36,910 bases of DNA from Methanomassiliicoccaceae archaeon (lineage in GTDB: Archaea; Thermoplasmatota; Thermoplasmata; Methanomassiliicoccales; Methanomethylophilaceae): NCBI GenBank assembly GCA_031254685.1, contig JAIRTZ010000103.1, positions 1-36,910 on the forward strand. The letters run 5' to 3'. Made by a program: the position numbers and the translations under genes. The notes below the pieces were generated by a model. It was not told the DNA's origin, did no database searches, and was given only the letters and a program-made list of their open reading frames with translations. Numbering within the stretch: the first letter of the stretch is position 1; the number at the start of each line of letters is the position of its first letter. Of this stretch, positions 3,701 through 32,778 are shown one piece after another.

Positions 3701-3710
3701 ACACATTACC

Positions 3711-9621: not shown

Positions 9622-9622
9622 C

Positions 9623-12600: not shown

Positions 12601-12762
12601 ACAGGTGACGGAAAAGAGATACAATAACAAAAGCGTTGTGCCGTTCCGTACCTTATTCGGGAGAGTTATACTAACTTGAACGGAGTGTTTTCATCAAACA
12701 ATTAAAAAACTAATTTCCGAGCATCCTTTTCAAGGGTCCGTACAATCAAATCTATATGAGAG

Positions 12763-15676: not shown

Positions 15677-18217
15677 ATGAAGATCCATACAGTGCTTATC
15701 ATACTGCTGGTGGCCGCTTTGCCGCTGGCCGCCGCTGTCATCGGGGAGAGCGCGTCAGGCGCCGGAAAGATACCCGGGCTCGCGGGGAACGGGACGGGCG
15801 CAGACCCGTATCTGATATCCTCGGCGGCCGACCTGCGGACCATGTCCGCGTCGTACCAGAACCACAGCGGCGCGACCTACAGACAGACCGCCGACATTGT
15901 TTTCAGCGACACGGCCTTCCCGGGGGACAAGGCATACGTGCTGACATCCGTCTCCGGCGGAAAGGTGAAGGGCACCATAACCGTGAATGCCAAAACGGTG
16001 AGCACGGCCACGTCTGTGAAACTGTATCTGAACGGAAATCCGGTGGCCGTGAAGATTCAGGGCAAACTTGTAGAATTCGAAGTTGATACTGGAACGCTGA
16101 AGGACTCCAACTCTCTCGCCGCGACCGGGACCATCGAAGGGAACAGCTTCGGGATCGCCGTGAACTTTTCAAAGGCCGCCGCTGCCGATATGTCCGTATC
16201 CGCCCCGATAAGGGGGAACTTCACGCCGATAGGTACGAATGACGTACCGTTCGTCGGCACCTATGACGGCAACGGACGTTCCATTACCGGTATAAAGGTC
16301 GTCTCAACGGGTCCCGACGACGCCTGCACCGGTCTTTTCGGCAAGACCGGGAGCGGAACGATATACGATGTCACGATATTATCGAAAAATGACAACGCAT
16401 CATATTTTCTCACGAACGCCGTCAGCAAGAATTCTTACCAGTACGTGACCTCGCCGCCCCAGACGCTCGCATCCTACACCGGCAGCATCGTCGGCTGCGC
16501 GGCTCCCGGCACATCGGTGATCGCATGCCGGAACGAGGCCACGGTGCTCTCGGAAACGGAATTAGCTAAATATTACCTCTTCACCGGCATGTCCGGATTC
16601 CTGAACATCACCCGTAATTTTAATTTTGAAGCGGCATCGTACACCGGCGGGATAGCCGGATACGGGACCGGATACATGTACAGATGCGAAAATACCGGCA
16701 ATGTGATATCCTCGCTGAATTCGTCGTTCACATACAACGTTTCCAACGATCCGTTCGACGCGTCCAACAAATACAAATGCACATTCAATATCTCCGCGTG
16801 CAACTATGCCGGAGGGCTCCTCGGATACACGGAGACCGCGGACGTCTCCTCCTCCGGGAATACCGGCCTTGTGTCCGCGCTCAGCAGCTATTTCGTAAAG
16901 ATCGATCACACCCAATATCTGGACAACATCACCGCAACCCTGAACGAAACGTTCGTCACCTCCTCCGGCGGCATCGTCGGCTCGGCGCAGAAGGGCATTA
17001 TCTCAGATGTGTACAACTACGGGGCGGTTGCCGCCGATTGCGACTTTACGCACAGGACGCTGAAGACGATAGCGGAGAAGGATGTTCAGTCATTCACGTT
17101 CGACCTGTCCGCCGGGGGAATAGCGGGCAGGCTCGGGAACATCGAGATAAAGAGGGCGTACAACAGGGCCTCCGTCACCGCGGGCGGGACGGTCACTGCG
17201 ACACTCAACAGCATACAGAATGCCGGCGGGGTGCGTTATGCAGGCCAGATCGTCGGAATGGCGAAGAGCGACCCCGTAACCCTGACCGCCTGTTATTACA
17301 CCGACATCTCGGCAGGCCTTCCGGTGACCGGGAATCGAAGCCACACGGCGACGAAGATACCGGCGTCCGAAAAATTGTCATCAGCAACATTCCCCGCATG
17401 GGATTTCAGCAAGACGTGGGCGATATCGGATAACGGGACGGTCACGGTATCCGTGCGCAACCCGCTGACGATCATAGACAGATCGGGGACGAATGAGGGT
17501 ACTGTGAGATATTCCATAGACAGTCAGCACACGTTCGACGCCGGCGGCACCCTTTCCGGCTACGTTGACAGGAAAGGCTTCGCGGTAACGCTGAAGGAGG
17601 ACTACAAAAGTTCCGTCATATCGTTGTACATCACGTCAGGGAATGACAAGATATTCCTGACGAAGGACGGCAGCGGCAGATATCAGGTGCCTCAGAGTTA
17701 CCTTGTGTTCGGCGGCCCCGTGACGGTGAACATCGACGGTCTTGTCGCCGACCCGGTACGTAACATGAAGATCGAGGACAGATCGAACACGAACGACAGC
17801 GCAATAAAATATTCGATAGACAGGACGCATACCTTCGCCTCAGGCATTCTCTCGTCGCAGATCGACAAGAGGGGCTTCGCACTTACGCTGAAGAAGGATT
17901 ACGAGGGATCGGACATACAGCTGTACGTGATGGATGCCGGGAAAAGGACGGTGCTTGCGAAGGAGGGCGGCAGATATATCGTTCCGCTGCAGCACATCAT
18001 CGCCGCGACGACCGTGACGGTGTATATCGAAGGCCTCGTCGCCGATCCGGTACGCGAGATGAAGATAATCGACACATCGGAATTTTACGACCCCGCAGGA
18101 AAATATCTGATCGAAAGGCAGCACTCGTTCGATGGCGAGGGCACTCTGACGGCGCAGGTCGACAAGTGGGGCTTCCTTGTCGCATTGAAGAAGGATTACC
18201 TGTCATCGGAGATATAG
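15677..18217 (+). CDS. GLUG-motif adhesin-like surface protein, N-terminal segment: signal peptide, beta-helix/GLUG region, repeats 1-3, up to an in-frame TAG
   Basis: SD-like AGGGGAG before the ATG. Signal peptide MKIHTVLIILLVAALPLAAAVIG. GNGTGADPYLISSAADLRTM start typical of GLUG/beta-helix adhesins. Recurring GLUG-like motifs (TGLFGKTG, YTGGIAGYG, YAGGLLGYT, SSGGIVGSA, SAGGIAGRL). The ORF ends at TAG 18215-18217 in the middle of a repeat. Confidence 0.8.
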   Translation: MKIHTVLIILLVAALPLAAAVIGESASGAGKIPGLAGNGTGADPYLISSAADLRTMSASYQNHSGATYRQTADIVFSDTAFPGDKAYVLTSVSGGKVKGTITVNAKTVSTATSVKLYLNGNPVAVKIQGKLVEFEVDTGTLKDSNSLAATGTIEGNSFGIAVNFSKAAAADMSVSAPIRGNFTPIGTNDVPFVGTYDGNGRSITGIKVVSTGPDDACTGLFGKTGSGTIYDVTILSKNDNASYFLTNAVSKNSYQYVTSPPQTLASYTGSIVGCAAPGTSVIACRNEATVLSETELAKYYLFTGMSGFLNITRNFNFEAASYTGGIAGYGTGYMYRCENTGNVISSLNSSFTYNVSNDPFDASNKYKCTFNISACNYAGGLLGYTETADVSSSGNTGLVSALSSYFVKIDHTQYLDNITATLNETFVTSSGGIVGSAQKGIISDVYNYGAVAADCDFTHRTLKTIAEKDVQSFTFDLSAGGIAGRLGNIEIKRAYNRASVTAGGTVTATLNSIQNAGGVRYAGQIVGMAKSDPVTLTACYYTDISAGLPVTGNRSHTATKIPASEKLSSATFPAWDFSKTWAISDNGTVTVSVRNPLTIIDRSGTNEGTVRYSIDSQHTFDAGGTLSGYVDRKGFAVTLKEDYKSSVISLYITSGNDKIFLTKDGSGRYQVPQSYLVFGGPVTVNIDGLVADPVRNMKIEDRSNTNDSAIKYSIDRTHTFASGILSSQIDKRGFALTLKKDYEGSDIQLYVMDAGKRTVLAKEGGRYIVPLQHIIAATTVTVYIEGLVADPVREMKIIDTSEFYDPAGKYLIERQHSFDGEGTLTAQVDKWGFLVALKKDYLSSEI

Positions 18218-19840
18218 CTGTACGTGATCGACGGCGGCAAGAAGACGGCCCTTACGAAGGAGGTCGGCAGATATATCATTCCGGTGCAGCACCTTCTGAA
18301 CTCATCGACCGTGACGGTGTACATGGACGGCCTCGTCGCCGATCCGGTCAGGGATATGGTCATCGTCGACACATCGGACACATTCGACGGTACGATCAGG
18401 TATACGATAGACAGGGCGCACATCTTCTGCGCCGGCACACTCTACGCGGATATCGACAAGACGGGATTCGTGCTTACGCTGCTCGGAGATTACGTCAGGT
18501 CCGACATTGAGATCTATGTCGCACTCGGTGACGAAAGGATATACCTCACGAAGGACGGCAGCGGAAAATACATCGTTCCGGTGGAGATCATCCTCGGCGC
18601 GGACATCGTGACGCTGAGCATCGACGGCCTCGTCGCCGACCCGCTACGCGGGATGACGATCATCGACGCATCCGGAACATACTACGGGAACGCCAAGTAT
18701 TCGATAGACAGGGAGCACTCGTTCGACGGCAGCACACTCTACGCGGATATCGACAAGACGGGATTCGCGATCACGCTGATGAGAGATTACATTAACTCGG
18801 ACATCGCGATCTATTTGCTCATCGGTGACGAAAGGACGCTCCTCGAGACCGACGGCGACGGCAGATATGTCATTCCGCTCCGGACGCTCATCGACGCGGA
18901 TAAGATCGCATTATGCATCGAAGGCCTCGTCGCCGACCCGATACGTGAGATGACAATCGCCGACCCATCGGGAATGCACTGCGGGAACGCCAAGTATTCG
19001 ATTGACAGGGAGCACTCGTTCGATACGAACGGCGTTCTGTACGCGGATATCGACAGCAAAGGATTTGCGATCGCCCTCTCGGAGGATTACAAGGGATCGG
19101 ACATCAGGATATACATGATCCTCGCTGACGGAAGGACGCTTCTCGAAACGGACGGGGACGGCAGATATATGATCCCGCTGATGACACTTCTCGACGCGGA
19201 TATCATCGCATTATGCATCGAAGGCCTCGTTGCCGACCCGGTACGGGAGATGACCATCGCCGACAGATCGGGATATTATTACGGGATTGCCAAGTATTCG
19301 ATAGACGGGCCGCACTCATTCGACAAGGACGGCCGTCTGTCCGGCATCATCGATAAGACGGGGTTCGCGATCACGCTGATGACGGATTATTCGTCATCGG
19401 ACATAGAGGTGTACATGACGGTCGGCGGCATCGCGACGGCGGTCGGGAAGGACGGCAGCGGAAAATACATCGTTCCGCTGGAGACGCTTCTCGCGTCGCC
19501 ATCGGTGACCTTATTCATCGAAGGTCTCGTTGCGGACCCGGTACGCGATCTGGTGATGATCGACGTATCCGAGGGATCCGACGGTACGGTAAGATATGCG
19601 ACAGATCTGGAACACTCATTCGATCCGGACGGGATCCTTTTCGGAAAGATCGGCAGGACGGGTTTCGCTGTCACGCCGGAGGAGGGATACAATGTCTCCG
19701 GGATCTCGATATACATGACCCTCGGGGACGGGAGGCTCTACATTGAAAAAGACGCGGAAGGCAGATATATCGTCCCTCTGGAATATATTCTCGTCGCGGA
19801 AACGGTGACATTATACATTGACGGCATCATGAAAAACATT
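17456..19840 (+). repeat. Eight tandem coding repeats of 294-303 nt (98-101 aa) in the adhesin gene
   Basis: Repeat units start at 17456, 17759, 18053, 18350, 18647, 18944, 19244 and 19544. Each begins R-x-M/L-x-I-x-D and ends (I/V)(D/E)GLVADP(V/I/L). Units 5-7 are the most similar to one another (GNAKYSIDREHSFD, LLETDGDGRY.IPL, ALCIEGLVADP.REMTIAD). Confidence 0.9.
18215..18217 (+). other. In-frame amber (TAG) codon inside repeat 3 of the adhesin gene: nonsense mutation, or read-through/pyrrolysine candidate
   Basis: Same reading frame on both sides (15677 and 18224 are both congruent to 2 mod 3). Repeat 3 reads ATA TAG CTG TAC GTG, whereas repeat 2 reads ATA CAG CTG TAC GTG at 17917-17931. 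Confidence 0.85.
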
Positions 19841-20080
19841 CCCGCCGCAGATGATAATGATGACGATAAAGATGACGATGACAAGATCGATCATAAAAAT
19901 GACGGCGGAGCGATCATCGCCGCGGACCCCGGAGGGCCCGGGATGCTGGCATTTATATGCGTATTCGTCTTTATCGCACTCGGCGCGGGGTTGACCGCGG
20001 TCAACACATTGCGCACAAGGTCGATACTGAGGCTCTGCGGCAAGGGGGATACGGATGATAAAGAGAATGAGCAAACTTGA
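18218..20080 (+). CDS. GLUG-motif adhesin-like surface protein, C-terminal continuation: rest of repeat 3, repeats 4-8, Asp-rich linker, TM anchor
   Basis: Repeat homology continues without break across the TAG. No SD or ATG lies at the ORF-track GTG start (18224). The C-terminus has AADDNDDDKDDDDK and the hydrophobic helix GMLAFICVFVFIALGAGLTAV. TGA stop. Confidence 0.75.
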   Translation: MYVIDGGKKTALTKEVGRYIIPVQHLLNSSTVTVYMDGLVADPVRDMVIVDTSDTFDGTIRYTIDRAHIFCAGTLYADIDKTGFVLTLLGDYVRSDIEIYVALGDERIYLTKDGSGKYIVPVEIILGADIVTLSIDGLVADPLRGMTIIDASGTYYGNAKYSIDREHSFDGSTLYADIDKTGFAITLMRDYINSDIAIYLLIGDERTLLETDGDGRYVIPLRTLIDADKIALCIEGLVADPIREMTIADPSGMHCGNAKYSIDREHSFDTNGVLYADIDSKGFAIALSEDYKGSDIRIYMILADGRTLLETDGDGRYMIPLMTLLDADIIALCIEGLVADPVREMTIADRSGYYYGIAKYSIDGPHSFDKDGRLSGIIDKTGFAITLMTDYSSSDIEVYMTVGGIATAVGKDGSGKYIVPLETLLASPSVTLFIEGLVADPVRDLVMIDVSEGSDGTVRYATDLEHSFDPDGILFGKIGRTGFAVTPEEGYNVSGISIYMTLGDGRLYIEKDAEGRYIVPLEYILVAETVTLYIDGIMKNIPAADDNDDDKDDDDKIDHKNDGGAIIAADPGGPGMLAFICVFVFIALGAGLTAVNTLRTRSILRLCGKGDTDDKENEQT

Positions 20081-20660
20081 CGAGTTCTGCATGCCGGAGG
20101 TCTTTGTCATCGATACCGAGACCACCGGCCTCGACGGCGCGCCCAAGGATAAGGTCGTGGATATCGCGATATGCAGGGTCACCTTGGGCGGGGACAGCGT
20201 CGACACGGTATATTCATCGATCGTCGGCCACGATACCTCGAAGTGGAACAATGAGCTCAGGCACGCGTGGATATTCGAGAACACCGACCTCACCGCGGAA
20301 ATGGTCCGCAATGCGCCGCCTGAAGCGGACGTGGTGCGCGATGTCTCGCGGATACTCAGCGGAAAGAATGTCACAAGCTTCAATTATTCCTTTGATTTCG
20401 ACAAGTTCCTGTACAGACAGCCGTGGTCCCTGCGCGATATCATCGTTCCGTTCAAATGCGTCATGATAGCGTCCAAGGACGTCTGCAGACTGCCGGGGAT
20501 GTACGAGGATTACAAATATCCGAGGCTCGACCAGGCGTACTCCATGATCGTCAAAGGAGACCCGGCGGGGATCGCCGGAAAGCAGGCGCACAGGGCGCTG
20601 TCGGATGCCGTGATGGCGTCATACATCTTACTGGAACTTTACAGAACGGGGCACTACTGA
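20067..20660 (+). CDS. DEDDh 3'-5' exonuclease (DnaQ/RNase T superfamily)
   Basis: ExoI VFVIDTETTGLDG, ExoII VTSFNYSFDFDKFL and ExoIII HRALSDAVMASYILLEL. The start is ATG 20067 (MSKLDEF) or 20055, overlapping the adhesin gene end. The 3' end overlaps the convergent ATPase gene by 7 nt. Confidence 0.8.
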   Translation: MSKLDEFCMPEVFVIDTETTGLDGAPKDKVVDIAICRVTLGGDSVDTVYSSIVGHDTSKWNNELRHAWIFENTDLTAEMVRNAPPEADVVRDVSRILSGKNVTSFNYSFDFDKFLYRQPWSLRDIIVPFKCVMIASKDVCRLPGMYEDYKYPRLDQAYSMIVKGDPAGIAGKQAHRALSDAVMASYILLELYRTGHY

Positions 20661-23245
20661 TCCTTCTTCTTGCGGATGCTCTTGAGGCGCAGCGAATACA
20701 GCCATTCGGTGAAGTTGGTGGCCTTCTCGAGTATCCCGTTCCTTAATACCCATCGCGTGACGAAGAACCATGCGACCGCCACCCCGATCGTGACCGCATA
20801 GATCGGCCAAGGCAGCGGCGGTATATCGACGAACTCAGAGAACACGGGATAGTTGAACACCCCCCAGTACGCCAGCGCAAGCAGGCCGAAGAGAAGGAAT
20901 GCGAGTATGGTCGGTTTGATGTCCTTTGCGATCCTTCCGTCAACGGAGAAGAATCTGAACCGCGGGACGACGACCGTCATCTGCGCTATCGCCACGACGA
21001 CAAGGAACAGCAGCAGCGAGTTGCGTGCGACGATCTCCGGGATGGCGTCCTCTGTGGCGTTGTTGAAACCGAACAGCGCGAGATCGCCTGATGTGAGGTC
21101 GACCCTGAATATCCCGTCGAACAGATGATGGCTCATACCGATATGGAAGAACGAGTACAGCAGCATCCCGAATATCGTTATCAGGATCGCCGTCGGTATC
21201 GCGAACCTGAGCACCTCCGGTAAGATCGAGCCCTCGACCTTCGACGGCTTCGCCCATACCACCATGAAGAACGACCCGATCGAAAGACCGATGATGGCAT
21301 AGAACGTCGCCGTTATCGGAACGAGCGGGGGCGCGTGGAACAGGATTATCGTAAGGAAGACGAGCAGGCATATCACGAAGTTCCTGGAAAGATACATCTT
21401 CAGTATGTCGCGCATCCCCGACACGGTGCGGTTGCCCTCGATCATGGCCTTCGGCAATGCCGAGAAATCATCCGACATAAGTACCATGTCGGCCACCCCG
21501 CGCGCGGCGCCGCTCCCGCTCTGCAGCGCCACACCGACGTTGGCCTCTTTCAGCGACCTCACATCGTTCACGCCGTCGCCGACCATTGCGACGTATCTCC
21601 CGCTGTCCTTCAGTGTTTTTATCACCATCTGCTTCTGATCGGGCTTCATGCGTCCGAAGATGTTCGTCTCAAGTATCCTTTCCTTCCTCGCGGGATCGCT
21701 CAGCTTATCAAGCTCATCGCCGGAAAGTATCTTCCTTTCGCCGGGGAGCCCGGCGATCATGAACAGCGAGTTCACGGCCTCGGGGTCGTCGCCCGATAAT
21801 ATCCTGATCTCCATGCCGTTGTCGATGAACTTGTTCATCGTATCCCTGCAGTCCGGTCTTACCTCATCCTCGATCGCTATAACCGCGACAGGTTCGAGAT
21901 CGGGAAGTATCGGAACGTCTCCGTCATAGAATCCGCCGCCCGCACCGGTCGCGAGGACAACGGCCCTCAGCCCGCGCGAGGAATATTCTTTCACGGCATT
22001 CTCGATGCCCTTGGTATCGGTCATATTCCTGGAGAGGACATTGAACGCCCCCATTATCAGCATCACTTCGTCATCGCCTTCGATAACGCGTACGCCGGAA
22101 TATTTGCGCTCGGGAGAGAACATTATCTCGTCAACGAGTTCCGTCTCGGTCTTTCCGTATCTGTTCGCTATCGCGTCTATCGTCTTGTTCCTGCTGCCGG
22201 TGGCGGATGCGAACACCGTCGCGTAATGTTCCGCCAGGGCCAGATCGGTCACGGGGGTGATGCTGTTGAATACCAGACGGTTCGTGGTTATCGTTCCCGT
22301 CTTGTCCATACAGACGGTGTCCACGTGGCTTATCGATTCTGTTGCGTTCGCCCTCTGCAGGAGGACGCCAGAGTCGGACATGCGCACAGCGGCGATCATA
22401 TACGCGATCACAAGCATCGGAAAGAGCCCGATGGGCACCATGTCGAGAATGACCTCGGCCATCTTGGCGCTCTCTGCGCTGTTGATGTCGACGATGCTGT
22501 GCGTCGTGAGGACGTTCCAAAGGATCATCACCGCGAGATAGACCAATGCGATGGCCATCATGAACTTGGTCACCGCGCCGGTCTCCATTTGCAAAAGGCT
22601 GAGTTTGTTGTCAAATTTCTTCGCGCTCGCAAGCATCTTCGCCGCGAACGTCCTGTCTCCGAAGACGGTCACCTGATAATATCCTTCGCCGGTGACGCAG
22701 TGAGAGCCCGAGTATATCATGTCGTCGGCCTTTTTTCTCACTGTCCGGGATTCTCCGGTCAGCAGGGATTCATCCATCTCTATGGAACGGACCTTAAGGA
22801 GGACGCCGTCGACCAGCGCCTGGTCGCCGCTCCGGAGATGGATCACGTCGTCCTTCACGATCATCGATTGATCTATCTCCTCCTCGATGCCGTTCCTGAT
22901 GACGGCCACCTTCGGCCTCATGAGCAGCGCGATCTTATCCAATCGGCGCTTCGCCCGGATCTCCTGTATCGTCGCGATCACGATGTTTATCGTTATCATC
23001 CCGACCGCCGCCAATGCGCTCGGGATCTCGTGGAAATAAAGGAGAACGGCGCCCAGCGAGAACAGTATGAGGTTGAATATCGTCAGAACATTTCTGGTGA
23101 CGATATCAAAATAGGTCCTGCTGACGACAGGCTCCACGGAATTGATCTCTTTGTTGGAGATCCTTTCGGCAACCTGGCTGTCCGTCAGTCCCTCGAATTC
23201 CATATACGTAAATCGCACACGCTTATAAAAAACGTGTGAGGTCAT
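20654..23245 (-). CDS. P-type cation-transporting ATPase (type II/III-like) with non-canonical TM4 motif PIGL
   Basis: LTGES actuator motif, phosphorylation site CMDKTGTITTN, hinge MVGDGVNDVRSLKEANVGVAL and about 10 hydrophobic helices. TM4 reads MVPIGLFP where Ca/Na,K pumps have PEGL. The start is ATG 23245 (ATGA overlap with the upstream stop) or ATG 23203 (MEFEGLTDSQV). It ends in TAG with an in-frame TAA five codons later. Confidence 0.9.
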   Translation of the reverse strand: MTSHVFYKRVRFTYMEFEGLTDSQVAERISNKEINSVEPVVSRTYFDIVTRNVLTIFNLILFSLGAVLLYFHEIPSALAAVGMITINIVIATIQEIRAKRRLDKIALLMRPKVAVIRNGIEEEIDQSMIVKDDVIHLRSGDQALVDGVLLKVRSIEMDESLLTGESRTVRKKADDMIYSGSHCVTGEGYYQVTVFGDRTFAAKMLASAKKFDNKLSLLQMETGAVTKFMMAIALVYLAVMILWNVLTTHSIVDINSAESAKMAEVILDMVPIGLFPMLVIAYMIAAVRMSDSGVLLQRANATESISHVDTVCMDKTGTITTNRLVFNSITPVTDLALAEHYATVFASATGSRNKTIDAIANRYGKTETELVDEIMFSPERKYSGVRVIEGDDEVMLIMGAFNVLSRNMTDTKGIENAVKEYSSRGLRAVVLATGAGGGFYDGDVPILPDLEPVAVIAIEDEVRPDCRDTMNKFIDNGMEIRILSGDDPEAVNSLFMIAGLPGERKILSGDELDKLSDPARKERILETNIFGRMKPDQKQMVIKTLKDSGRYVAMVGDGVNDVRSLKEANVGVALQSGSGAARGVADMVLMSDDFSALPKAMIEGNRTVSGMRDILKMYLSRNFVICLLVFLTIILFHAPPLVPITATFYAIIGLSIGSFFMVVWAKPSKVEGSILPEVLRFAIPTAILITIFGMLLYSFFHIGMSHHLFDGIFRVDLTSGDLALFGFNNATEDAIPEIVARNSLLLFLVVVAIAQMTVVVPRFRFFSVDGRIAKDIKPTILAFLLFGLLALAYWGVFNYPVFSEFVDIPPLPWPIYAVTIGVAVAWFFVTRWVLRNGILEKATNFTEWLYSLRLKSIRKKKDQ

Positions 23246-26070
23246 CCGCCCGCGAAGGAGGCGATACGCTGATAAATCTCGTCGATGCCGATCGGTTCCA
23301 CGGTAACGGAGATGCCTTGCGACACATAGTCGATCACGCATACCACGGGCTTCCCGAGCGACGACGCGGCGTGCGCGTAAACGCTCATCTGAATACGGTA
23401 ACGCGGCTCGTTGTCACGATTCATGTCGGTCTTGAAATCATGGACCTCCACGCGGTCCTTGAATATCGCCAGCATGTCGATGCGCCCGGCGATGACCGTG
23501 TCCTTCATCGGAAGGGAACAATCCGTTTCCGTCAGTATCTCCGCGCCCTTCAGGGAATCGTATATCTTTCTGATGTATCTTGTCTCATCATCGCTGACGC
23601 TCGGGATCATCCCGGACATTATCCTCTGCGCATCCTTGTGGACGCGTATCCCGTGATCGGCGCCCTTTCCTCCGCCGCTCTCCTCGTATGCGCCCATGAT
23701 GTCGTGCAGGGATATCCGGTTCATACGGGGCTCATATCCCGGGACGGACGGTCTTTCGTTCACCGCCGCCGTCACGGTCCGCTCCCGCTTCTCAAGTATC
23801 GGGTCCGTATCGGTCATTTCGCCGTCGCAGACGTCCCTGATGAAATATGACGGCTTGGTGCCGAAGCAGGTCATCGTTATGTACTGCCTGGCGCGCGACA
23901 GCGCCACGAAGAACAATCTCCGTTCCTCGTCGCGGTCCGGCGGAAGACTGTCGATGATGTTCCATTTCCAGCATTTGAACACCTTGTGATGTTTGCCCGT
24001 CACAACGTAATCGTTCTTCAGGCGCACGCCGTACAGCGGGTCGAACGCGATCACCGAATCATCATGCTTGTCGAGCGGCATCTTGCTCATCGTCAGCCCC
24101 CCGACGATGACGATCGGATATTCGAGCCCCTTCGATTTGTGCATCGTCTGTATCATAACGGAGCGGCCGTCAAGCGGCGCGTCGACGTTGTATCTCGATC
24201 CCCTTTTCATATCCGTTTCGATGAGCCCGATCATCTCCGATATCGTCAGCATGCTGCCGCTGTGCGTTGACGATATCGTTGAGATTATGGACTGCGTGAT
24301 ATCGTTGTTCAATCCGTGGTATGCGAATATCGACGTCAGCAGGTCGTTTATCCTCCGTCTCTTCGTCCTCAGCGTCTCGCGATGCCTCTCCATCCCGTCG
24401 GGTATGCACGGGACGCCGTGCCTGGGGAACATCGCGCGCAGCTCCGCGAGCGTGTATCCCGAGTCGGCGAGTATCGTCACGGGGCCGCGGAGGTCGGTGC
24501 GGTTGTTGATGTATCTCAGCCAGGCGAGCACAAGCTTTCCCTCGCGGGTGTCCATGATGCTGACATCGCCCTGGAGATGCGCCGGTATCCCGTAACGGTC
24601 GGCTTCGTTCTTTATGTCGATGCACATCTTGTTCGCCCTGCACAATACCGCGATGTCGCCGTATTCCGGCTGTCTGTCGCGGATGATATTTCCGTCGGCA
24701 TCGTAAACGGGGATGCGGTACCGCGGGTCCGTTACGTATTCGGTGATCCTCTGCAATATCGCAAGCTTTTCCTTGTCGTATGTTTCCGCATGCAGTCTTT
24801 CCGCGTGCGTATATCCGCCGTGGTCCCTGAACGCCGTCAGCTGCGTCACGTTCGCGTCAAGGTATGCGGTGTCGATCGTCTCATCCTTCCTTGCCCTGCA
24901 CCGGAGCGTCCTGAACGCGGCGTCGATGACCGTCTGCGAACTTCTGTAGTTCTCGGTCAGCGGCAGCGAAACAGGTTCGCCGTCGAACGGAACGACACGT
25001 TTCTCCCCTTTGTTCAGGAATCTCGTCATTTCCGCGAGGCGCTCTCTGAAATGTATCATGTTGTCGACGCTCGCGTACCTGAATCCGTAGATTCCCTGCT
25101 TCCAGTCGCCGACGGCGCAGAGGTTCGGTTCACGGAGGATCAGGAGCGATATCATGAACTGCAGTTCGTTCGTATCCTGGAACTCGTCCACCATTACGTA
25201 ACGGAAGGACATCATCTTCCTGACCCGCTTGCTCGAGTAAAGGATGATGAACGCGAACAGCGCGTTCAGGCCGAACGTCAGCCTGTTGTCGGATATCGAC
25301 GATCGTATGTATTCGTAATAGACGCCGTTGATGAACCGCAGGAGAAGCGCCCTCGGGTCGTTCGCGGCCTCCTTTATCATTTCCCCGGTCACCTCATCCA
25401 GTCTTCTGTCCGGCGGCAGGTCGTTGGCCGCCGCGGAGTACCGCACGTTCGCTCTCTCGGTATTCTTTGATAACTTTTCGATAAGCTTTTCGGTGTCCCC
25501 GAACAGCGAGTCCCTGCTGCGCCCGAACCATCCCTCGTCGTGCGTCGGCGCGATGCCGATGGCCATCAGCCGTTGGATGACGTCGTACACATCCGACGCG
25601 GACGTTCCGACGATCGCCGGTATATTTCCGTATATGTGCCCGTATCTTCTGATGAACCGGGTGTACACGTTCCTGAAATATTCTTGGTCAATGGTCTCAT
25701 TCTGCACAAGCCTGGCGTTCCTCGTAAGTGTTTCCTTCGTCTTGAAGAACTCTTTCACCGTTTCCGGCGATTCCATCACCACCCGCAGACAGAATGCATC
25801 GAACGTCGACGAGCGGACGGCGGACGCATCGGCGTCCGCAGACGAACAAAGCATCTCGCTCTTCACGCGCCCCTCCATCTCCAGGGCGGCGTTGTTGGTG
25901 AACGTCAGCAGAAGGATGTCGGACGGGGCAACCTCCTTTCTGAGGATGTTAAGGTATCTCTGCACGATGGTGTGCGTCTTCCCGGTGCCCGGCCCGGCAT
26001 CCACGGCGACGATGCCGTCCGTCGTCTCCGCGATCTTCTGCTGGCGCTCATTCAGATTCGTCATCGTCAC
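23242..26070 (-). CDS. UvrD/Rep-family SF1 helicase fused to a C-terminal PD-(D/E)XK (RecB-type) nuclease; AddA-like
   Basis: Walker A VDAGPGTGKTHT, motif II MVDEFQDTNELQF, motif V/VI TMHKSKGLEYPIVIV and FFVALSRARQYITM. C-terminal nuclease motifs GIRVHK, GRIDML, EVHDFKT and YRIQMSVYA. It overlaps the upstream gene by 17-23 nt. Confidence 0.85.
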   Translation of the reverse strand: MTMTNLNERQQKIAETTDGIVAVDAGPGTGKTHTIVQRYLNILRKEVAPSDILLLTFTNNAALEMEGRVKSEMLCSSADADASAVRSSTFDAFCLRVVMESPETVKEFFKTKETLTRNARLVQNETIDQEYFRNVYTRFIRRYGHIYGNIPAIVGTSASDVYDVIQRLMAIGIAPTHDEGWFGRSRDSLFGDTEKLIEKLSKNTERANVRYSAAANDLPPDRRLDEVTGEMIKEAANDPRALLLRFINGVYYEYIRSSISDNRLTFGLNALFAFIILYSSKRVRKMMSFRYVMVDEFQDTNELQFMISLLILREPNLCAVGDWKQGIYGFRYASVDNMIHFRERLAEMTRFLNKGEKRVVPFDGEPVSLPLTENYRSSQTVIDAAFRTLRCRARKDETIDTAYLDANVTQLTAFRDHGGYTHAERLHAETYDKEKLAILQRITEYVTDPRYRIPVYDADGNIIRDRQPEYGDIAVLCRANKMCIDIKNEADRYGIPAHLQGDVSIMDTREGKLVLAWLRYINNRTDLRGPVTILADSGYTLAELRAMFPRHGVPCIPDGMERHRETLRTKRRRINDLLTSIFAYHGLNNDITQSIISTISSTHSGSMLTISEMIGLIETDMKRGSRYNVDAPLDGRSVMIQTMHKSKGLEYPIVIVGGLTMSKMPLDKHDDSVIAFDPLYGVRLKNDYVVTGKHHKVFKCWKWNIIDSLPPDRDEERRLFFVALSRARQYITMTCFGTKPSYFIRDVCDGEMTDTDPILEKRERTVTAAVNERPSVPGYEPRMNRISLHDIMGAYEESGGGKGADHGIRVHKDAQRIMSGMIPSVSDDETRYIRKIYDSLKGAEILTETDCSLPMKDTVIAGRIDMLAIFKDRVEVHDFKTDMNRDNEPRYRIQMSVYAHAASSLGKPVVCVIDYVSQGISVTVEPIGIDEIYQRIASFAGG

Positions 26071-28729
26071 CGCCCCTTGTGCATATCTGCCGGAAATAGC
26101 ATCTGTCGCATCCCTTCCTCGGCGTGTACGGGAAACCGCTGTGCTGCTGCTCGTTCGCCCTCTTGTGTATCTTACGCGCGTATTCCTTGAATCTCCCGAT
26201 CGATTCTCCCGGGATGATTATTCTGTTCTCGTCATCGATCACGATGAAGCATCTCATCAGCAGCTTGGCGGAATCCCGGATAACTTTTTCAGTTTCCTCG
26301 CGTGCCGCTTTGGTCCGCTTCCCGTGCATCGCCATGATCCTTTCAAAAAGTTCCGTATCCCCGGCCCACCTCTCCGGGTTCCCGACGCCGGCGGCCAGCA
26401 GCGCGCTCCCGAATCTGCTGCCGAGTTCCGTAATGATGTCGCTGGTCTTCCTGGTGCACACCATTCTGAGCACCGTCCCGTTACGGACGATGTCCTCGCG
26501 GCTCAGCAGCGAGATGGTTCTTGCATTTTTCATGATGTTGAAGTCCGGGTCGTTGGCAGATTCGACATCATTGTCCGTCGTATAGAATTGAATGAACTCC
26601 TTCTTCCCGGTGCCTCCGAGCATGTCGTCGAGTATCGAGAGATAAACGAACGGCTGCAGCTCGTAATAATCGTTCTTTTTGGACGCATCCATCTTCTTCG
26701 CGATATCATCGACATTGTACGGCCTTCCCGATTTGTAATCAATTATGCGGTTGCCGTACAGCAGGTCGAACCTCCCCTCCAGCGGGGTCGCGTCGGAACG
26801 GCACGACCTTTCCATGATGTCCGTTCGTTGATCTTTTCCGAAGTGCTCGAAGAACGGGTTCCTTCTGCCTTTCGGTGCGTCGGTGAGCTGCACCGCGATG
26901 TTCAGGGAATCAATGAACCGTGACACATTGGTCATCGACACCCGTATCCTCGATCTGTCGAGCTCCCGTTTCTCGGGACACGATATCCCCGCCCACGCGT
27001 CGGCGAGTATGTCCGTGCATGTTTCGATATTCGTCCTTGCGATGTCGGGATAGCAGAGGCAGAATTCCGCGAACTCGTGGACCATGTTGCCGAAGACGAT
27101 GCCCTCGGTGTCCGGCGGCCCGACAAGTTCTCCGAACATGTACGCCATCGGGCATGTGACATAGAGGTTCATCGTCGACTTCGAGAATCTGCGTATGTCG
27201 CCGTCCGTGCCGCCGGCAGGATGCCTGTCATTCGCAGGCGGTGCGCCGGGGGAGCACCATGCGCCCCTGACGACCGTCGTGTTAACGAGGTCGCCGAACG
27301 ATGAGACCTTTCTCATCACGCCGTCCGCGTCGGTGTTCAGACGGTCGAAGAGCGTGCAAGGCCTCGCCTCCTTGCCGCCTTTCATCGTGTTGACGAGATG
27401 CATCCTCACGGAACCCTGCTGCAGGAGTATCTGAAACCTCTGTCTTTCCTTCTCATCCTCTTCGGCGCGGTCGATATAACTTTCACCGGCAGCGGACCCC
27501 GACCAGGCGCCGTCCATGTTCACGTATATGACGAACGGCCGATCGATGAACGCCGAATTGCGGCAGTCCGTCAGGAGAACGCCGCGTCTCTCATTGTCGG
27601 GGATCTGCGCGTTGTGCTTTATCCCGTCCATCGAGTTTATCAGGTACGATGCGTGGCCGGCCGTCCTTTCATTGATCAGTTCATCACCCAGGCCGAGCTC
27701 CCCGAATATCATGTTAACGGTCCCATTGGCGCCCTTGCCGACGATCGCGCCGCAAAGCTCGGAGAACGTGTGTTCTCTAATATTCTTCATTTTCTCCGAG
27801 AGCGCTTTAGCGCCGTCCTTCGATATCCTCGCGTGCCTGTCCAGTAAGTATTCGTCGAACCTGCTGTCCATCCATACCCCGTAGCATGCGAACAGTTCTC
27901 TTACGTCGCCAACCGTTAAAATCTCGTATGAGAGCGATCTCGTCACGAACTCCATGAAATCCCTGACGTCGATGAGGTCCCTTGCGCTCAGTGTGTTCTT
28001 GAATCCTATCCCTTTCCGATACAGCGCGGAACGCACCGCGTCGGATATCGCCCCCTGCGTGTCCATGACTATGGCGACGTCCTCGGTGCTGCGTCCGGCG
28101 ATCATATCGACCGCGTGCTCCGCGACCTGTCTGTCGTTGCCGACCGCGTACACGGTTCCGATATCGTAGCGGCCATTCTCTTTGAATAAGGAGATATCAT
28201 CAAAATCCATCGGGATGAAATGCTTATCGAGATCGTCAAAAAGCTCGATTCCGATCACCGCGACCTTTTTTCCGTCATAAGTATGATGTTCCGACGGGTC
28301 GAAGGACGCCATCACCAACTCGTATGTCGGCAGTTCCGTGTATATCCTGTATATCTCCCTCGAGGACCTTCCGGCCAGATATTTTTCGACATCCTTCCTG
28401 TATCTTCTGATAAGACGGATGTTCTCCACTTCCCCGTGAACGAAACGTATGTCGTGCTTCGTCGCCTTCGTTATGAGGTCCAAAATGCGGACGTCGTCCA
28501 TTATCCCGTATCTTCCGTCCCTTGTGCATCTGCCTTCAGACATCAGCTTTTCGAGGATCGCGTCCTCGCGGTCCTTGGCGATCATCCTCGGGGTTGACGC
28601 CAATCTGCCGATCCTCGGCGCATCGATGCGGTTGTTCAGCGCCGTCACTAGCGCGGCGTCATTGGAAATGACGATATCGTATCTTTTCGATTCGTCATAC
28701 AGCTCGTCAATGGTCTTGGCAACCTTCAC
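26048..28729 (-). CDS. AddB-like protein: degenerate helicase-like N-terminal region plus PD-(D/E)XK nuclease with a four-Cys iron-staple signature
   Basis: No Walker A motif in the N-terminal ~550 aa. The C-terminal domain has C-x...GNMVHEF, EGRFDLLYGNRIIDYKSG and YELQPFVY. One upstream Cys (YVTCPMAYMF) plus terminal CDRCYFRQIC (CxxCx5C) matches AddB/Cas4 Fe-S nucleases. The only start at the ORF head is GTG 28729. Confidence 0.72.
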   Translation of the reverse strand: MKVAKTIDELYDESKRYDIVISNDAALVTALNNRIDAPRIGRLASTPRMIAKDREDAILEKLMSEGRCTRDGRYGIMDDVRILDLITKATKHDIRFVHGEVENIRLIRRYRKDVEKYLAGRSSREIYRIYTELPTYELVMASFDPSEHHTYDGKKVAVIGIELFDDLDKHFIPMDFDDISLFKENGRYDIGTVYAVGNDRQVAEHAVDMIAGRSTEDVAIVMDTQGAISDAVRSALYRKGIGFKNTLSARDLIDVRDFMEFVTRSLSYEILTVGDVRELFACYGVWMDSRFDEYLLDRHARISKDGAKALSEKMKNIREHTFSELCGAIVGKGANGTVNMIFGELGLGDELINERTAGHASYLINSMDGIKHNAQIPDNERRGVLLTDCRNSAFIDRPFVIYVNMDGAWSGSAAGESYIDRAEEDEKERQRFQILLQQGSVRMHLVNTMKGGKEARPCTLFDRLNTDADGVMRKVSSFGDLVNTTVVRGAWCSPGAPPANDRHPAGGTDGDIRRFSKSTMNLYVTCPMAYMFGELVGPPDTEGIVFGNMVHEFAEFCLCYPDIARTNIETCTDILADAWAGISCPEKRELDRSRIRVSMTNVSRFIDSLNIAVQLTDAPKGRRNPFFEHFGKDQRTDIMERSCRSDATPLEGRFDLLYGNRIIDYKSGRPYNVDDIAKKMDASKKNDYYELQPFVYLSILDDMLGGTGKKEFIQFYTTDNDVESANDPDFNIMKNARTISLLSREDIVRNGTVLRMVCTRKTSDIITELGSRFGSALLAAGVGNPERWAGDTELFERIMAMHGKRTKAAREETEKVIRDSAKLLMRCFIVIDDENRIIIPGESIGRFKEYARKIHKRANEQQHSGFPYTPRKGCDRCYFRQICTRGGDDDESE

Positions 28730-28810
28730 ACCGTCACATTCTGTTACGGATATTAAAGGTTGACAGGGAGGTGGCCGAAAGTGGAGAAATGACGGAAAGT
28801 ACCGTCCCGA

Positions 28811-29319: not shown

Positions 29320-30651
29320 ATGTCCGCGGTCATTTCAGTATCGGAGCTCAACGAACGGGCGAAAGCCGTCCTGGCGGCGGACCCGTCGCTCAATGACGTT
29401 TGGGTATCTGGTGAGATTTCAAATCTCACGAAGCACACGTCCGGGCATTATTATTTCACTCTGAAGGATACGAAGAGCGAAGTGCGCTGCACGCTGTTCA
29501 GAGGGGCGCGGAACACTCTGCCCTTCGAACCCGCGGAGAGCATGAAGGTTTTGGCCTTCGGTTCCGTCGACATGTACGTCGCCCGCGGTTCCTATCAATT
29601 CAACGTTTCGACGATGAGGAGGTCCGGCATAGGCGACATGTACCTCGCGCTCGAGGAACTGAAGAAAAAGCTGAAGGCGGAAGGTCTGTTCGACGACGCG
29701 AGGAAACGTCCGATACCGAAATACCCGGTCACCGTCGGCGTCGTCACGTCGCCGACCGGCGCGGCGATACAGGATATAATCAAAGTTTCGGCGAAGAGGT
29801 TCCCCGCGCACATACTTCTCGCCCCGGTGCTCGTTCAGGGCGAGGGCGCCGCGGCGTCCATCGCAAACGGGATTGAATTAATGAACACCCTGCCCGTTGA
29901 CGTTCTGATCGTGGGAAGGGGCGGCGGCTCCGCCGAGGACCTCTGGGCGTTCAATGAGGAGAAGGTGGCAAGGGCGATAGCCGCGTCACGGATACCCGTG
30001 ATATCGGCGGTCGGCCACGAGACCGATTTCACAGTGGCGGACCTGGTGGCCGATCTGCGCGCGCCGACGCCGTCGGCGGCGGCAGAGACAGCATTGCCCG
30101 ATATATCGTCAGAGATACGGAACATTGACAACATGATGATGCGCGCCTCGGGTTCGCTGATGCACTGCATCGGAACGATGCGCAATGACTTTAAGGTCCT
30201 GGATTCCAAGCTGTCGCCGAGGCGCGCTAAAGAGACCGTCGACGCGAATATGCGGAATATCAGCGAAATGACACGCAGATCGCTGTTCGCCGTCCGCTCG
30301 TTGCTGAACGGAAAGGCCGCGGCGTTCAGGACGCCGGACGCGAAACTGTCGCCGAGGCGCGCGAAAGACACCGTCGCCCAATATATCATGGCGATGGACG
30401 AGATCTCGGCGTCCGCGGACGCATCGCTGATACGGATCGTCTCCGATAAGAAGAGGGACGTATACGCCGCGGAACAAAGGATGAACGCGATCAATCCGAT
30501 GAAGGTCCTGGAAAGGGGATACAGTTTCGTTACCGGCGCCGACGGAAGGACACTGACGTCGGTGTCGCAGATATCATACGGTTCCGATGTGGAGATAAGG
30601 ATGAGGGACGGAAGCGCCAAAGCGAAGATAAATGAGGTGAGGAAGAAATGA
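29320..30651 (+). CDS. xseA: Exodeoxyribonuclease VII large subunit
   Basis: N-terminal OB fold VSELNERAKAVLAADPSLNDVWVSGEISNLTKHTSGHYYFTLKD. Catalytic core VGVVTSPTGAAIQD, GRGGGSAEDLWAFNEE and VGHETDFT. C-terminal coiled coil with two LSPRRAK segments. Confidence 0.9.
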   Translation: MSAVISVSELNERAKAVLAADPSLNDVWVSGEISNLTKHTSGHYYFTLKDTKSEVRCTLFRGARNTLPFEPAESMKVLAFGSVDMYVARGSYQFNVSTMRRSGIGDMYLALEELKKKLKAEGLFDDARKRPIPKYPVTVGVVTSPTGAAIQDIIKVSAKRFPAHILLAPVLVQGEGAAASIANGIELMNTLPVDVLIVGRGGGSAEDLWAFNEEKVARAIAASRIPVISAVGHETDFTVADLVADLRAPTPSAAAETALPDISSEIRNIDNMMMRASGSLMHCIGTMRNDFKVLDSKLSPRRAKETVDANMRNISEMTRRSLFAVRSLLNGKAAAFRTPDAKLSPRRAKDTVAQYIMAMDEISASADASLIRIVSDKKRDVYAAEQRMNAINPMKVLERGYSFVTGADGRTLTSVSQISYGSDVEIRMRDGSAKAKINEVRKK

Positions 30652-30869
30652 AGGAAGTAAGCGAAATGACGTTCGAGGAAAGTCTCAAGGCACTCGAAGA
30701 ACTGGTGGACATGCTTGAGAACGGAGGCCTCGATCTGGATAAAAGTCTGGACATATACGAGAAGGCCGTCAAGTTACGGGATCACTGCAGGACGATACTC
30801 GAGAACAGCGAGAGACGGGTGCAGAAGATCATGGAGACGGCGGAAGGCATACGGAAAGAGGACGTCTGA
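30648..30869 (+). CDS. xseB: Exodeoxyribonuclease VII small subunit
   Basis: 73 aa. FEESLKALEELVDMLENGGLDLDKSLDIYEKAVKL is the canonical XseB helix-turn-helix hairpin. ATGA overlap with xseA. Confidence 0.88.
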   Translation: MKEVSEMTFEESLKALEELVDMLENGGLDLDKSLDIYEKAVKLRDHCRTILENSERRVQKIMETAEGIRKEDV

Positions 30870-30870
30870 A

Positions 30871-31725
30871 TCACGGGGCCCACAGTCTGAATCTGTTCTC
30901 CGACGACCATTTCGACGTTTCGCGGAATAACGCGGTCGAATGGAACGTTTCCTTTTCGTACGCAAGGCGCAAAGCGCCTCCGAGCTCGCCGGATCTGATA
31001 TATTTGGAGTTGTAAGACCCGAAGATCTCGCGCAGTCCGAACGCAAGCACCGATATCATGTCATGGCCGCGGCAGACGTCCCACGGGCTGCGCTCATCCT
31101 TCAGCTCCCTGTTCAGCTGCGCCGCGAGGTCCTTCTTCGCGACATGCGAATGCTGCGAGTTCGATAATAATACGTCGATCATCGTCTCGATGTTCACCTT
31201 CAATCCCTTTCGGTCCACGAACAGCGAATGGTCGGGGTCCTTGAACGAAAGGTCATGCTCGTGCATATCGGACACGTACATCAGCATTCCCAGCGGATAG
31301 CACGCTGCGGTGAGGGCATCACGCACCTGACCGTACTTGTTCACGAACGTTTCCAATCTGTCCTCGTCCGCGTATTCCAGCAGGACGCTGTCCAGTGCGG
31401 AGCTTCTCATCATCACCGTGTCGGTATCGCGGCAGTCGGTGCCGAACACCGGGCGCGCATGCGTTATCCCTTTCAGCGTGTCGAGGTCATTGTCCACTAT
31501 CCCGAGCACCTTGCGGTCGTTCCTCCGCAGATACGATTCCCTGACCGAATTTCTTACGTTATCCTTGGACTGGGCGACGATCACGGTGCATGCGTCCTCG
31601 TCTGTGTACTTCCGGTAAAGCCTGCAGTCGGTGACCCCTTCGACAACAAGGAAGGACCCGTCGAAGAACGAGCGTTTCATCGATATCTCGTTCGCAATAT
31701 CGGACGCACGGATGAATTCACGCAC
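30871..31725 (-). CDS. DUF4435-like TOPRIM protein (AriB-like candidate nuclease effector)
   Basis: 284 aa. N-terminal FLVVEGVTDCRLYRKY supplies the TOPRIM glutamate in the DUF4435 context, and LGIVDNDLD supplies the DxD. The GTG start at 31725 overlaps the upstream ATPase gene by 8 nt; the alternative is ATG 31680. Confidence 0.68.
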   Translation of the reverse strand: MREFIRASDIANEISMKRSFFDGSFLVVEGVTDCRLYRKYTDEDACTVIVAQSKDNVRNSVRESYLRRNDRKVLGIVDNDLDTLKGITHARPVFGTDCRDTDTVMMRSSALDSVLLEYADEDRLETFVNKYGQVRDALTAACYPLGMLMYVSDMHEHDLSFKDPDHSLFVDRKGLKVNIETMIDVLLSNSQHSHVAKKDLAAQLNRELKDERSPWDVCRGHDMISVLAFGLREIFGSYNSKYIRSGELGGALRLAYEKETFHSTALFRETSKWSSENRFRLWAP

Positions 31726-32755
31726 TTCCAGCCCTCAGTTCGTTAGTAAGGTCCCAGTCGTCGTGGACGATCTGCGGGGAATGCGTCGCCGCAACGATCT
31801 GCAGGTCCCTGAGCCTCGCGACGTCCTTCAGAACGGGGCCGATCCTCTGCTGCCATGACACGTGCAGCGATATCTCGGGTTCGTCGATCATCACGAACGA
31901 GCCGGGCAGCGTCTGGAACAGCAGCCTGTACAGAATGATGAATATCTGCTTCTCGCCCGACGACATGTCCTTCACGGGTATCGTCATACCGTTGTCGAGC
32001 ACGAAAGTTATGTGCCCCTTCGCGTCTATCGTCATGTCCTTGTCGGAAAGGAAACTGTTCATGATGTCCCTGAACACTATGACCGATTCCGAGAAATGAT
32101 GGTTCTTGCTGACAAAATCGGAGATCCCGTGCACGAGGTCCAGATATTCCTTCCGCGACCCGGTGAGGTCGTACCTCGTCGGCGGGAACTTCAGTCCCGC
32201 GGGTATGTCGACGGTGAATCCGGCGTCGCGCATGAAGTTCAGCTTCGCGTTCAGGTCCTTCGCCCAGAATATGAGCTTATCGTCGCCCATGTCGTCCTTA
32301 TACTCGGGAACGGTCAGCGCACGGTTCTTGCGCGATTCCTTGATCTTGTTCGAAAGGTCGTTCGCATACGCTTCCGCGGCCGGTACTATGTGGCCGTCGC
32401 CTCTCTTCATGTACGTGCGCTCCGGACCGATGAACGTCGCCCCCGTGAGGGACGCCAGGTCGGCGGATGTCAATTCCGTTTCAAGCTCGTTCCTTTTCAT
32501 CTGCACGAGCAATTCATTCTCGGAACGCACAACGATCAGATTCTCACCCTTTTCGAAGAACAGGTCCAATCGTTGGAACGGGACGTTCGCCAGCTCTTTG
32601 ACGTTCCCGGTGAGCAGCAGCGATATCATCCGTATCAGCGTGCTCTTCCCGCATCCGTTCGGCGAGTGCACATAGGTGAGACCGCCGTCGAATATGTTCA
32701 CCGTATGGTCGTGGCGTCCGAAAAGCCCCTGAACTGAGATCCTTTTTATCTTCAT
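31718..32755 (-). CDS. ABC/SMC-type ATPase (AAA_21/AAA_15-like; AriA-like)
   Basis: MKIKRISVQGLFGRHDHTV start typical of RecF/SMC-like ATPases. Walker A SPNGCGKSTL, signature SSGEKQ, Walker B/D-loop FVMIDEPEISLH and H-loop VAATHSPQI. The preferred start is ATG 32755; the ORF-track GTG 32764 is less likely. Confidence 0.8.
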   Translation of the reverse strand: MKIKRISVQGLFGRHDHTVNIFDGGLTYVHSPNGCGKSTLIRMISLLLTGNVKELANVPFQRLDLFFEKGENLIVVRSENELLVQMKRNELETELTSADLASLTGATFIGPERTYMKRGDGHIVPAAEAYANDLSNKIKESRKNRALTVPEYKDDMGDDKLIFWAKDLNAKLNFMRDAGFTVDIPAGLKFPPTRYDLTGSRKEYLDLVHGISDFVSKNHHFSESVIVFRDIMNSFLSDKDMTIDAKGHITFVLDNGMTIPVKDMSSGEKQIFIILYRLLFQTLPGSFVMIDEPEISLHVSWQQRIGPVLKDVARLRDLQIVAATHSPQIVHDDWDLTNELRAGSA

Positions 32756-32778
32756 CGGTCTCACTTATCGGCTTTGGA

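Follow-up and report, generated by a model that had tools for sequence, protein, structure and literature searches.

The helicase-nucleases RecBCD and AddAB serve bacteria both in repair and in the degradation of foreign DNA, and bacterial AddAB also feeds the acquisition of CRISPR spacers. In Bacillus subtilis, addB precedes addA; Bacillus AddB has a Walker A motif, and both subunits of mycobacterial AdnAB retain ATPase motifs. AddB of Bacteroides fragilis is 209 amino acids (aa) shorter than the Bacillus protein, carries C674 and C946/C949/C955 on the two sides of a DYK nuclease motif, and belongs to a single-motor enzyme (PMC2887965). In archaea, 5' strand resection of DNA ends, by which these are prepared for RadA, is carried out by Mre11-Rad50 and HerA-NurA (PMC12977600). 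A survey of 2009 noted unexpected archaeal addAB genes, to the extent that it is cited in PMC2887965, and no later characterisation of these genes was found in the literature; a preprint of 2026 states that archaea have neither RecBCD nor AddAB and that Haloferax volcanii is without direct homologues (bioRxiv 10.64898/2026.05.08.723854). The present analysis concerns two adjacent genes, addB-like and addA-like, in 36,910 nucleotides (nt) of DNA from a Methanomassiliicoccaceae archaeon (GenBank assembly GCA_031254685.1, contig JAIRTZ010000103.1, positions 1 to 36,910, forward strand); this whole stretch is called the window.

The two products most likely make up an AddAB-type helicase-nuclease with one motor and two nucleases, which would act on the ends of double-stranded DNA. 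A bacterial AddAB/RexAB layout in an archaeon had been proposed earlier from the letters of the window without database searches (the sequence-only reading), and this proposal was borne out: the best fold match of each subunit is its own AddAB counterpart, and the two genes are strictly paired. New here are the core status of the pair in one archaeal order, its breadth across archaea, and the failure of annotation for the AddB-like subunit. That an intact AddAB-type pair belongs to the inherited core of an entire gut-methanogen clade bears on the claim that such enzymes are absent from archaea.

The gene pair and its two products

The addB-like gene (26048..28729, minus strand; 893 aa, GTG start) has a start that agrees with those of its homologues. 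The addA-like gene (23242..26064, minus strand) encodes 940 aa from ATG 26064, or 942 aa from GTG 26070 (open reading frame (ORF) 23242..26070); the ATG is the start of the called gene in the protein collection (940 aa) and fits the consensus start of the homologues. The stop of the first gene and the start of the second overlap at 26048..26064 (minus strand), by 17 nt from the ATG and by 23 nt from the GTG; the purine-rich GGGGCGGTGA is read just 5' of ATG 26064, and translational coupling of the two genes is likely. Both ORFs of the sequence-only reading (893 and 942 aa, overlap of about 20 nt) are thus in place, and all motifs quoted there were located: CDRCYFRQIC at 874-883 and the upstream C526 in the AddB-like protein; GRIDML at 862, HDFKT at 877 and QMSVY at 894 in the AddA-like one.

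In the AddA-like protein, Pfam found UvrD-helicase (2.6e-45), UvrD_C (4e-25) and a marginal PDDEXK_1 (1.7e-4). The helicase core (23866..26055, minus strand; aa 6-735) contains all seven motifs of superfamily 1 (SF1), among them Walker A AGPGTGKT (aa 25-32, nt 25975-25998), DEFQD 295, GDWKQGIYGFR 321, YRS 375, TxHKSKGLE (HKSKGLE 644) and VALSRA (LSRARQ 724); they are invariant in an alignment of 26 homologues. The C-terminal RecB-type nuclease (23245..23718, minus strand; aa about 785-942) has the motifs H811, E848, G862/D865 (GRIDML), D878-x-K880 (HDFKT) and Q894..Y898 (QMSVY), invariant in the same 26 homologues, and no four-Cys cluster. The AlphaFold (AF2) model (predicted local distance difference test (pLDDT) 85, predicted template-modelling score (pTM) 0.72) renders the alpha/beta core of the nuclease with confidence. 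On Foldseek search of the PDB, the best four matches were B. subtilis AddA chains (E 1.8e-37, query template-modelling score (TM) 0.60), followed by RecB, UvrD1/PcrA and AdnB; alignment was full-length to AddA and RecB. Pfam, the invariant motifs and the best fold match are thus in accord with the earlier description of a UvrD-family helicase with its own C-terminal RecB-type nuclease, AddA-like in kind. The curated NCBIfam models were matched below their cut-offs: addA_Gpos (TIGR02785) 1.4e-40, 139 bits vs 708; addA_alphas (TIGR02784) 96 bits vs 861; the matches of pcrA, addA and recB models were fragmentary and far under cut-offs. RecB-like helicase models of 909-945 positions are included in NCBIfam.

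The N-terminal region of the AddB-like protein (27260..28729, minus strand; aa 1 to about 490) is modelled as a degenerate SF1 helicase fold. It has no Walker A (scan with the pattern [AG]x4GK[ST]), no motif II and no recognisable helicase motifs; the position of the P-loop (after the first strand, aa 20-35) is occupied by xDAxLxxALNxR, conserved throughout the family including distant homologues. Further motifs invariant in the family are DDLDKH 165, GNDRQ 197 and LLQQG 435, and the strong conservation of these N-terminal motifs suggests a retained function (e.g., binding of DNA or Chi, or the interface with AddA). The AF2 model (pLDDT 81, pTM 0.49) gave B. subtilis AddB chains as the best five Foldseek matches in the PDB, with full-length alignment (E 8e-13, TM 0.44), followed by UvrD, Rep and PcrA over the N-terminal half and then by AdnA (1e-7) and RecC (3e-7). 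The protein had been read as a Walker-A-less helicase-like N-terminus joined to a C-terminal PD-(D/E)XK nuclease, for which structure prediction was the proposed check; motif scan, Pfam and the match of the whole model to AddB sustain that description.

The RecB-family nuclease domain of the AddB-like protein occupies its C-terminus (26051..27190, minus strand; aa 514-893), where Pfam PDDEXK_1 was found at aa 514-883 (E 8e-14). Its motifs G547, H551..E555, D655, D664-x-K666 and Q692..Y696 do not vary among 29 close homologues or among 13 distant ones; Pfam sees only nuclease-domain families in this protein and its distant relatives, and some relatives give weak matches to Cas4 or Dna2 models. 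The first putative iron-sulfur (Fe-S) ligand, Cys526 (CPMAY; codon 27152..27154, minus strand), lies N-terminal to the nuclease core, and three more are read in C874-x2-C877-x5-C883 (CDRCYFRQIC; 26081..26110, minus strand). All four Cys are invariant in the alignment of 29 homologues; invariance of nuclease, Cys and helicase motifs across 29 (AddB-like) and 26 (AddA-like) homologues argues that none of them is due to chance. The iron staple of AddB is formed by one Cys before and three Cys after the nuclease core (PMC3378879), and the 1+3 layout of the AddB-like protein fits it and is counted in favour of an AddAB-type enzyme. The nuclease is probably stapled by a [4Fe-4S] cluster on the four invariant Cys. 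The AddB/Cas4 iron-staple signature of the sequence-only reading accordingly stands as an invariant Cys pattern; the geometry of the staple finds no support in the model, in which the triad falls within a tail of low confidence.

Pairing, distribution and neighbourhood

The proteins of the window were compared with 84 related loci, 76 of which were long enough to be informative, the remaining eight being truncated contigs. The addA-like gene lies directly downstream of the addB-like gene on the same strand in 76/76 informative Methanomassiliicoccales loci; the commonest junctions are overlaps of 17, 4, 8 and 23 nt (56 related loci), and the two subunits co-diverge, the identity of one to its window copy tracking that of the other from locus to locus (Pearson 0.95, Spearman 0.71, n = 69). 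The conserved order of products is AriA-like, AriB-like, XseB, XseA, thioesterase, AddB-like, AddA-like, P-type ATPase, DEDDh exonuclease; XseAB and the DEDDh protein are further DNA-end nucleases in the block around the pair. Among the 84 loci, the P-type ATPase is downstream of the pair in 60 and XseA upstream in 40. The same order was found in the complete genome of strain ISO4-G1, where the two subunits are 35-43% identical; retention of the neighbourhood at such identity marks the two genes as a core chromosomal pair. The closest homologues of both proteins are all from Methanomassiliicoccales, the nearest (54-69% identity) from termite-gut metagenome-assembled genomes (MAGs), e.g., Ca. 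Methanomicula labiotermitis, and the window itself carries archaeal markers (class V fructose-1,6-bisphosphatase, DnaG-type Toprim protein, MtaA-like URO-D methyltransferase).

The pair is vertically inherited in Methanomassiliicoccales as a stable chromosomal core block and is not a mobile island; any transfer was therefore old. Of the earlier suggestion of horizontal acquisition, only such an old event is left, and no bacterial donor was found in the search. Co-occurrence of the two genes in related genomes, the point on which the proposed pairing was to be checked, was confirmed in the 76 loci above, in 35/35 haloarchaeal plasmids, and in Methanococcus, a Nanohaloarchaeon and Auribacterota.

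A search of 1.84 billion representative proteins with the AddB-like profile gave 240 clusters below 1e-30. Among the labelled members are Methanococcus maripaludis (WP_011976415.1), a Nanohaloarchaeon and an unclassified archaeon, besides MAGs that bear the labels Poribacteria and Auribacterota. An AddA-like partner stands directly after the AddB-like gene in M. maripaludis, the Nanohaloarchaeon and Auribacterota; no UvrD gene was present beside the Poribacteria relative on its 9-kb contig. At the M. maripaludis locus (L081, from JACDUL010000002.1; region 29-13470) the two proteins have 876 and 945 aa, and their genes directly follow a Gabija-like pair of OLD-family ATPase and UvrD helicase together with McrBC, and precede an XPD-like helicase; the left flank looks like a defence island.

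Both genes are side by side on 35 haloarchaeal megaplasmids from many genera, including those of Haloferax lucentense and H. larsenii. The haloarchaeal module (~860 + ~950 aa, overlap of a few nt) is exemplified by NZ_CP104742.1 149955-155401 (L088), NC_021913.1 142591-148048 (L089) and NC_014735.1 (L090); its contexts vary from nosZ and metabolic genes to integrases, insertion sequence (IS) elements, DNA methylases and a HamA fragment. In the records its products bear no annotation beyond 'PD-(D/E)XK nuclease family protein' and 'ATP-dependent DNA helicase'; the first of these names is probably explained by the invisibility of the AddB-like protein to curated AddB models. The haloarchaeal and nanohaloarchaeal AddB-like proteins examined and the unlabelled relatives P0364 and P0380 have lost the C-terminal CxxCx5C and kept all nuclease motifs, and some are also without the first Cys (alignment A3: L088:6422-9010, L089:6423-9008, P0335, P0364, P0380); the halophile-type sub-branch examined is apparently devoid of the Fe-S cluster.

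The plasmid search gave no bacterial plasmid with an AddB-like gene, and no phage record matched the AddB-like protein. A word-indexed search for a bacterial donor, with the Auribacterota member as query, yielded five proteins, none of which is a named AddB. The labelled relatives are all about equally distant (24-26% identity), so that neither a donor nor a direction of transfer can be assigned.

In the window, upstream of the addB-like GTG, a TATA-box-like TTTAATAT (28750..28757, minus strand) is read with its centre ~24 nt 5' of the start codon and is a possible promoter of a leaderless addB-like transcript. Divergent from thioesterase-addB-addA, a bacterial-type exonuclease VII is encoded at 29320-30869 (plus strand; xseA 443 aa, xseB 73 aa, 4-nt overlap). 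Beside xseAB is a PARIS-like pair (30871-32764, minus strand; 8-nt overlap) of an AAA_21 ATPase (348 aa, AriA 1.5e-28) and a DUF4435 protein (284 aa, AriB 1.2e-17); the same position is held by this pair in 36 related Methanomassiliicoccales loci and in ISO4-G1, which is unusual for a defence system. On the other side, a start at the first ATG of the P-type ATPase ORF (20654-23341, minus strand) would create an overlap of 100 nt with the addA-like stop; to judge by homologues (871 aa in ISO4-G1), the true start would be an internal Met near 23203. In 60 loci the ATPase gene stands a short distance 3' of addA in the same orientation, so that co-transcription is possible despite its unrelated function. 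The DEDDh (RNase_T-type) exonuclease (20055-20660, plus strand) is kept downstream of the pair in about 60 loci.

Four further ORFs of the plus strand, 2075-3700, 7723-8940, 15677-18217 and 18224-20080 (541, 405, 846 and 618 aa), gave no Pfam match above cut-offs, the 618-aa ORF having two sub-threshold matches only. The 846- and 618-aa ORFs lie just outside the conserved block, gave no PADLOC match and had no counterpart among the related loci searched. The 663-aa product of 5698-7689 (plus strand), in which two phospholipase-D-like (PLDc_2) domains are combined with a lamin-tail and a PKD domain, is possibly a nuclease or phospholipase that is secreted or exposed at the surface. No tRNA or Rfam family was found in the window, no cas genes or CRISPR array near the pair (Rfam and ORF scans), and no recD-like gene in the window or in the ISO4-G1 locus.

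Proposed function and alternative explanations

The tested features of AddAB architecture were all found in the pair: helicase and nuclease in AddA; helicase-like fold and nuclease in AddB, the latter at fold level only. Judged by motifs and model, one SF1A motor and two RecB-type nucleases appear intact, and the AddB-like protein is predicted to be a dead helicase-fold scaffold. The AddA-like subunit would be the only ATPase, a 3'-5' SF1A motor with one RecB-type nuclease attached; its partner would combine the catalytically dead scaffold with the second RecB-type nuclease. If B. subtilis AddAB is taken as a guide, the two subunits would form a heterodimer that binds the end of a DNA duplex in an Fe-S-dependent manner and unwinds it, with the 3' strand cut by AddA and the 5' strand by AddB. 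In AddB the dead helicase domains would scan the passing 3' strand, on which a Chi-like sequence could cause a switch to production of a 3' tail, and this tail would be handed to the archaeal recombinase RadA.

Repair of double-strand breaks and forks is most likely the main role, genome maintenance being favoured by the core syntenic status beside exonuclease VII and the DEDDh exonuclease. Degradation of linear foreign DNA is probably a by-function; it is a likely second function in view of the dual role of the bacterial enzymes and of the location of the pair, in other archaea, on plasmids and in defence-island settings.

A number of results weigh against this assignment, most of them concerning the AddB-like subunit. 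Searches of the PDB with its single sequence and with a 29-sequence profile returned no AddB, AdnA or RecC chain; NCBIfam gave nothing for it at E <= 0.1, nor for 12 distant relatives; and the profile-profile comparison of the AddB-like with the AddA-like family was insignificant, the sole stretch aligned being the classic start of helicase domain 2A. The AddB models addB_Gpos and addB_alphas (presumably TIGR02773 and TIGR02786) found no match at E <= 1 among 13 diverse family members, and no helicase family matched the N-terminal region at sequence level by Pfam, NCBIfam, PDB profile or profile-profile search. No sequence-level link having been found, homology to AddB is a matter of fold only, and the AddB assignment draws on synteny, on the motifs of the nuclease and the Cys pattern, and on a predicted fold of modest global TM (0.44; pTM of the model 0.49). 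The C-terminal tail of the model has a pLDDT below 60 and includes the Cys triad, so that the iron-staple geometry is drawn from the invariant Cys pattern and not from the model. Because it fails the curated, lineage-specific equivalog models of AddA and AddB, the pair is filed as a divergent AddAB-type family and not as a member of them.

The surroundings also speak partly against a housekeeping enzyme. The M. maripaludis copy adjoins the Gabija-like OLD-ATPase/UvrD pair and McrBC, the haloarchaeal megaplasmid copies, on accessory replicons, are often near integrases, IS elements, DNA methylases or a HamA fragment, and the PARIS-like AriA/AriB pair is 2 kb off in the window. These settings favour a primarily anti-virus or anti-plasmid module by which linear or unprotected foreign DNA is destroyed in place of housekeeping recombination, and PADLOC v2 adds matches of the UvrD part to GajB and RTasHel (DRT helicase). 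Those matches are of the generic UvrD kind, however; for the AddB-like protein PADLOC gave no GajA or reverse transcriptase match and only a weak match of the tail to Cas4, and no system was matched. The fixed chromosomal block of Methanomassiliicoccales, traced down to ~35% identity, is the opposite of patchy, mobile defence islands, one haloarchaeal locus stands among metabolic genes, and no phage record has the gene. Bacterial AddAB and RecBCD moreover do both jobs, so that defence is a second role more than a rival one; as the primary function it is considered improbable.

Far less probable still is separate action of the two proteins, i.e., a stand-alone UvrD-nuclease fusion and an unrelated PD-(D/E)XK/Cas4-like nuclease upstream of it. 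Stand-alone UvrD-Cas4-like fusions do occur in bacteria and mesophilic archaea (PMC5704561), the Poribacteria relative is without an adjacent UvrD gene on its contig, and sequence methods detect only the nuclease domain in the 893-aa protein. Against this stand the strict pairing (76/76 and 35/35), the fixed order, the overlapping stop and start and the correlation of identities (r = 0.95); in the model, the first 490 residues fold as a dead SF1 helicase, which would be useless to a solitary nuclease, and the whole matches AddB best. An AdnAB-like dual-motor enzyme, or a RecBC-like one with a nuclease-dead partner, has a negligible probability: AdnA, AdnB, RecB and RecC are among the significant fold matches, but in each of the two fold searches the AddAB subunit ranks ahead of these systems. 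The lack of Walker A and of recognisable helicase motifs in the AddB-like protein leaves one motor only, and its nuclease motifs are intact and invariant, with no adjacent recD-like gene.

The AddAB-type assignment can be extended, tentatively and with the balance rather against it, to the main end-resection machine of Methanomassiliicoccales and perhaps of other mesophilic archaea, which would replace HerA-NurA, be controlled by archaeal Chi-like sites and deliver its 3' tail to RadA. If so, a bacterial-type resection front end would be coupled to a eukaryote-type recombinase. Nothing was found in the literature on Mre11, Rad50, HerA or NurA in Methanomassiliicoccales. The questions raised are how bacterial-type end processing works with RadA and RPA, whether archaeal Chi-like sites exist, whether CRISPR spacers are supplied, and whether HerA-NurA coexists with the pair or is replaced by it. 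Homologous pairs are present in M. maripaludis and Haloferax, both of which are genetically tractable genera.

Comparison with known systems

Mre11-Rad50 and HerA-NurA share the presumed function of the pair and are unrelated to it in protein and in architecture, HerA-NurA being a hexameric HerA translocase with a NurA dimer. The iron-staple nucleases Cas4 and Dna2 belong, on the evidence of weak model matches, to the same four-Cys RecB-nuclease group as the nuclease domain of the AddB-like protein; unlike the latter, Cas4 has a length of ~200 aa and lacks any helicase-fold scaffold. A Cas4 adaptation nuclease was ruled out as an identification by the absence of cas and CRISPR context (Rfam and ORF scans), and a Gabija-like system by the absence of a GajA partner.

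RecB and RecC of E. coli RecBCD are both significant fold matches. RecB has the same layout of helicase and RecB nuclease as the AddA-like protein, and RecC, a scaffold with a dead helicase fold, can be compared with the N-terminal region of the AddB-like protein. RecC, however, has neither an active nuclease nor an Fe-S cluster, and RecBCD contains a third subunit, the RecD motor, for which the archaeal locus has no recD-like gene. Mycobacterial AdnAB is likewise a heterodimer of UvrD-like helicase-nuclease subunits, with AdnA and AdnB as significant fold matches; it differs in that only one subunit of the archaeal pair keeps ATPase motifs.

B. fragilis AddB, likened here by its published description and not by sequence comparison, shows a similar compaction and a Cys spacing equal to that of C874/C877/C883. 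As it is already so much shorter than the Bacillus protein, the small size of the archaeal pair is real but not unprecedented. The Bacillus AddB has a Walker A motif that the AddB-like protein lacks; with respect to the Walker-A-less AddB of the B. fragilis class, the archaeal family is distinguished by its own xDAxLxxALNxR at the position of the P-loop.

The closest likeness is to B. subtilis AddAB (PDB 3U44, 3U4Q, 4CEH-4CEJ), which has the same two-subunit layout and the same order of addB before addA, and which gives the top structural match for either subunit taken alone. Its AddA, like the AddA-like protein, joins an SF1A helicase to a RecB nuclease, and its AddB, like the AddB-like protein, joins a helicase-fold scaffold to a RecB nuclease flanked by 1+3 Cys with the spacing C-x2-C-x5-C. 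A relation to Bacillus AddB detectable by hidden Markov models is absent for the AddB-like protein, the structural alignments to the B. subtilis subunits have about 11% and 17% identity, and the recombinase of the host would be RadA and not RecA. The archaeal pair is ~25% smaller than its B. subtilis counterpart, 893 vs 1166 aa and 942 vs 1232 aa, in agreement with the earlier impression of an AddA-like subunit shorter than that of Bacillus.

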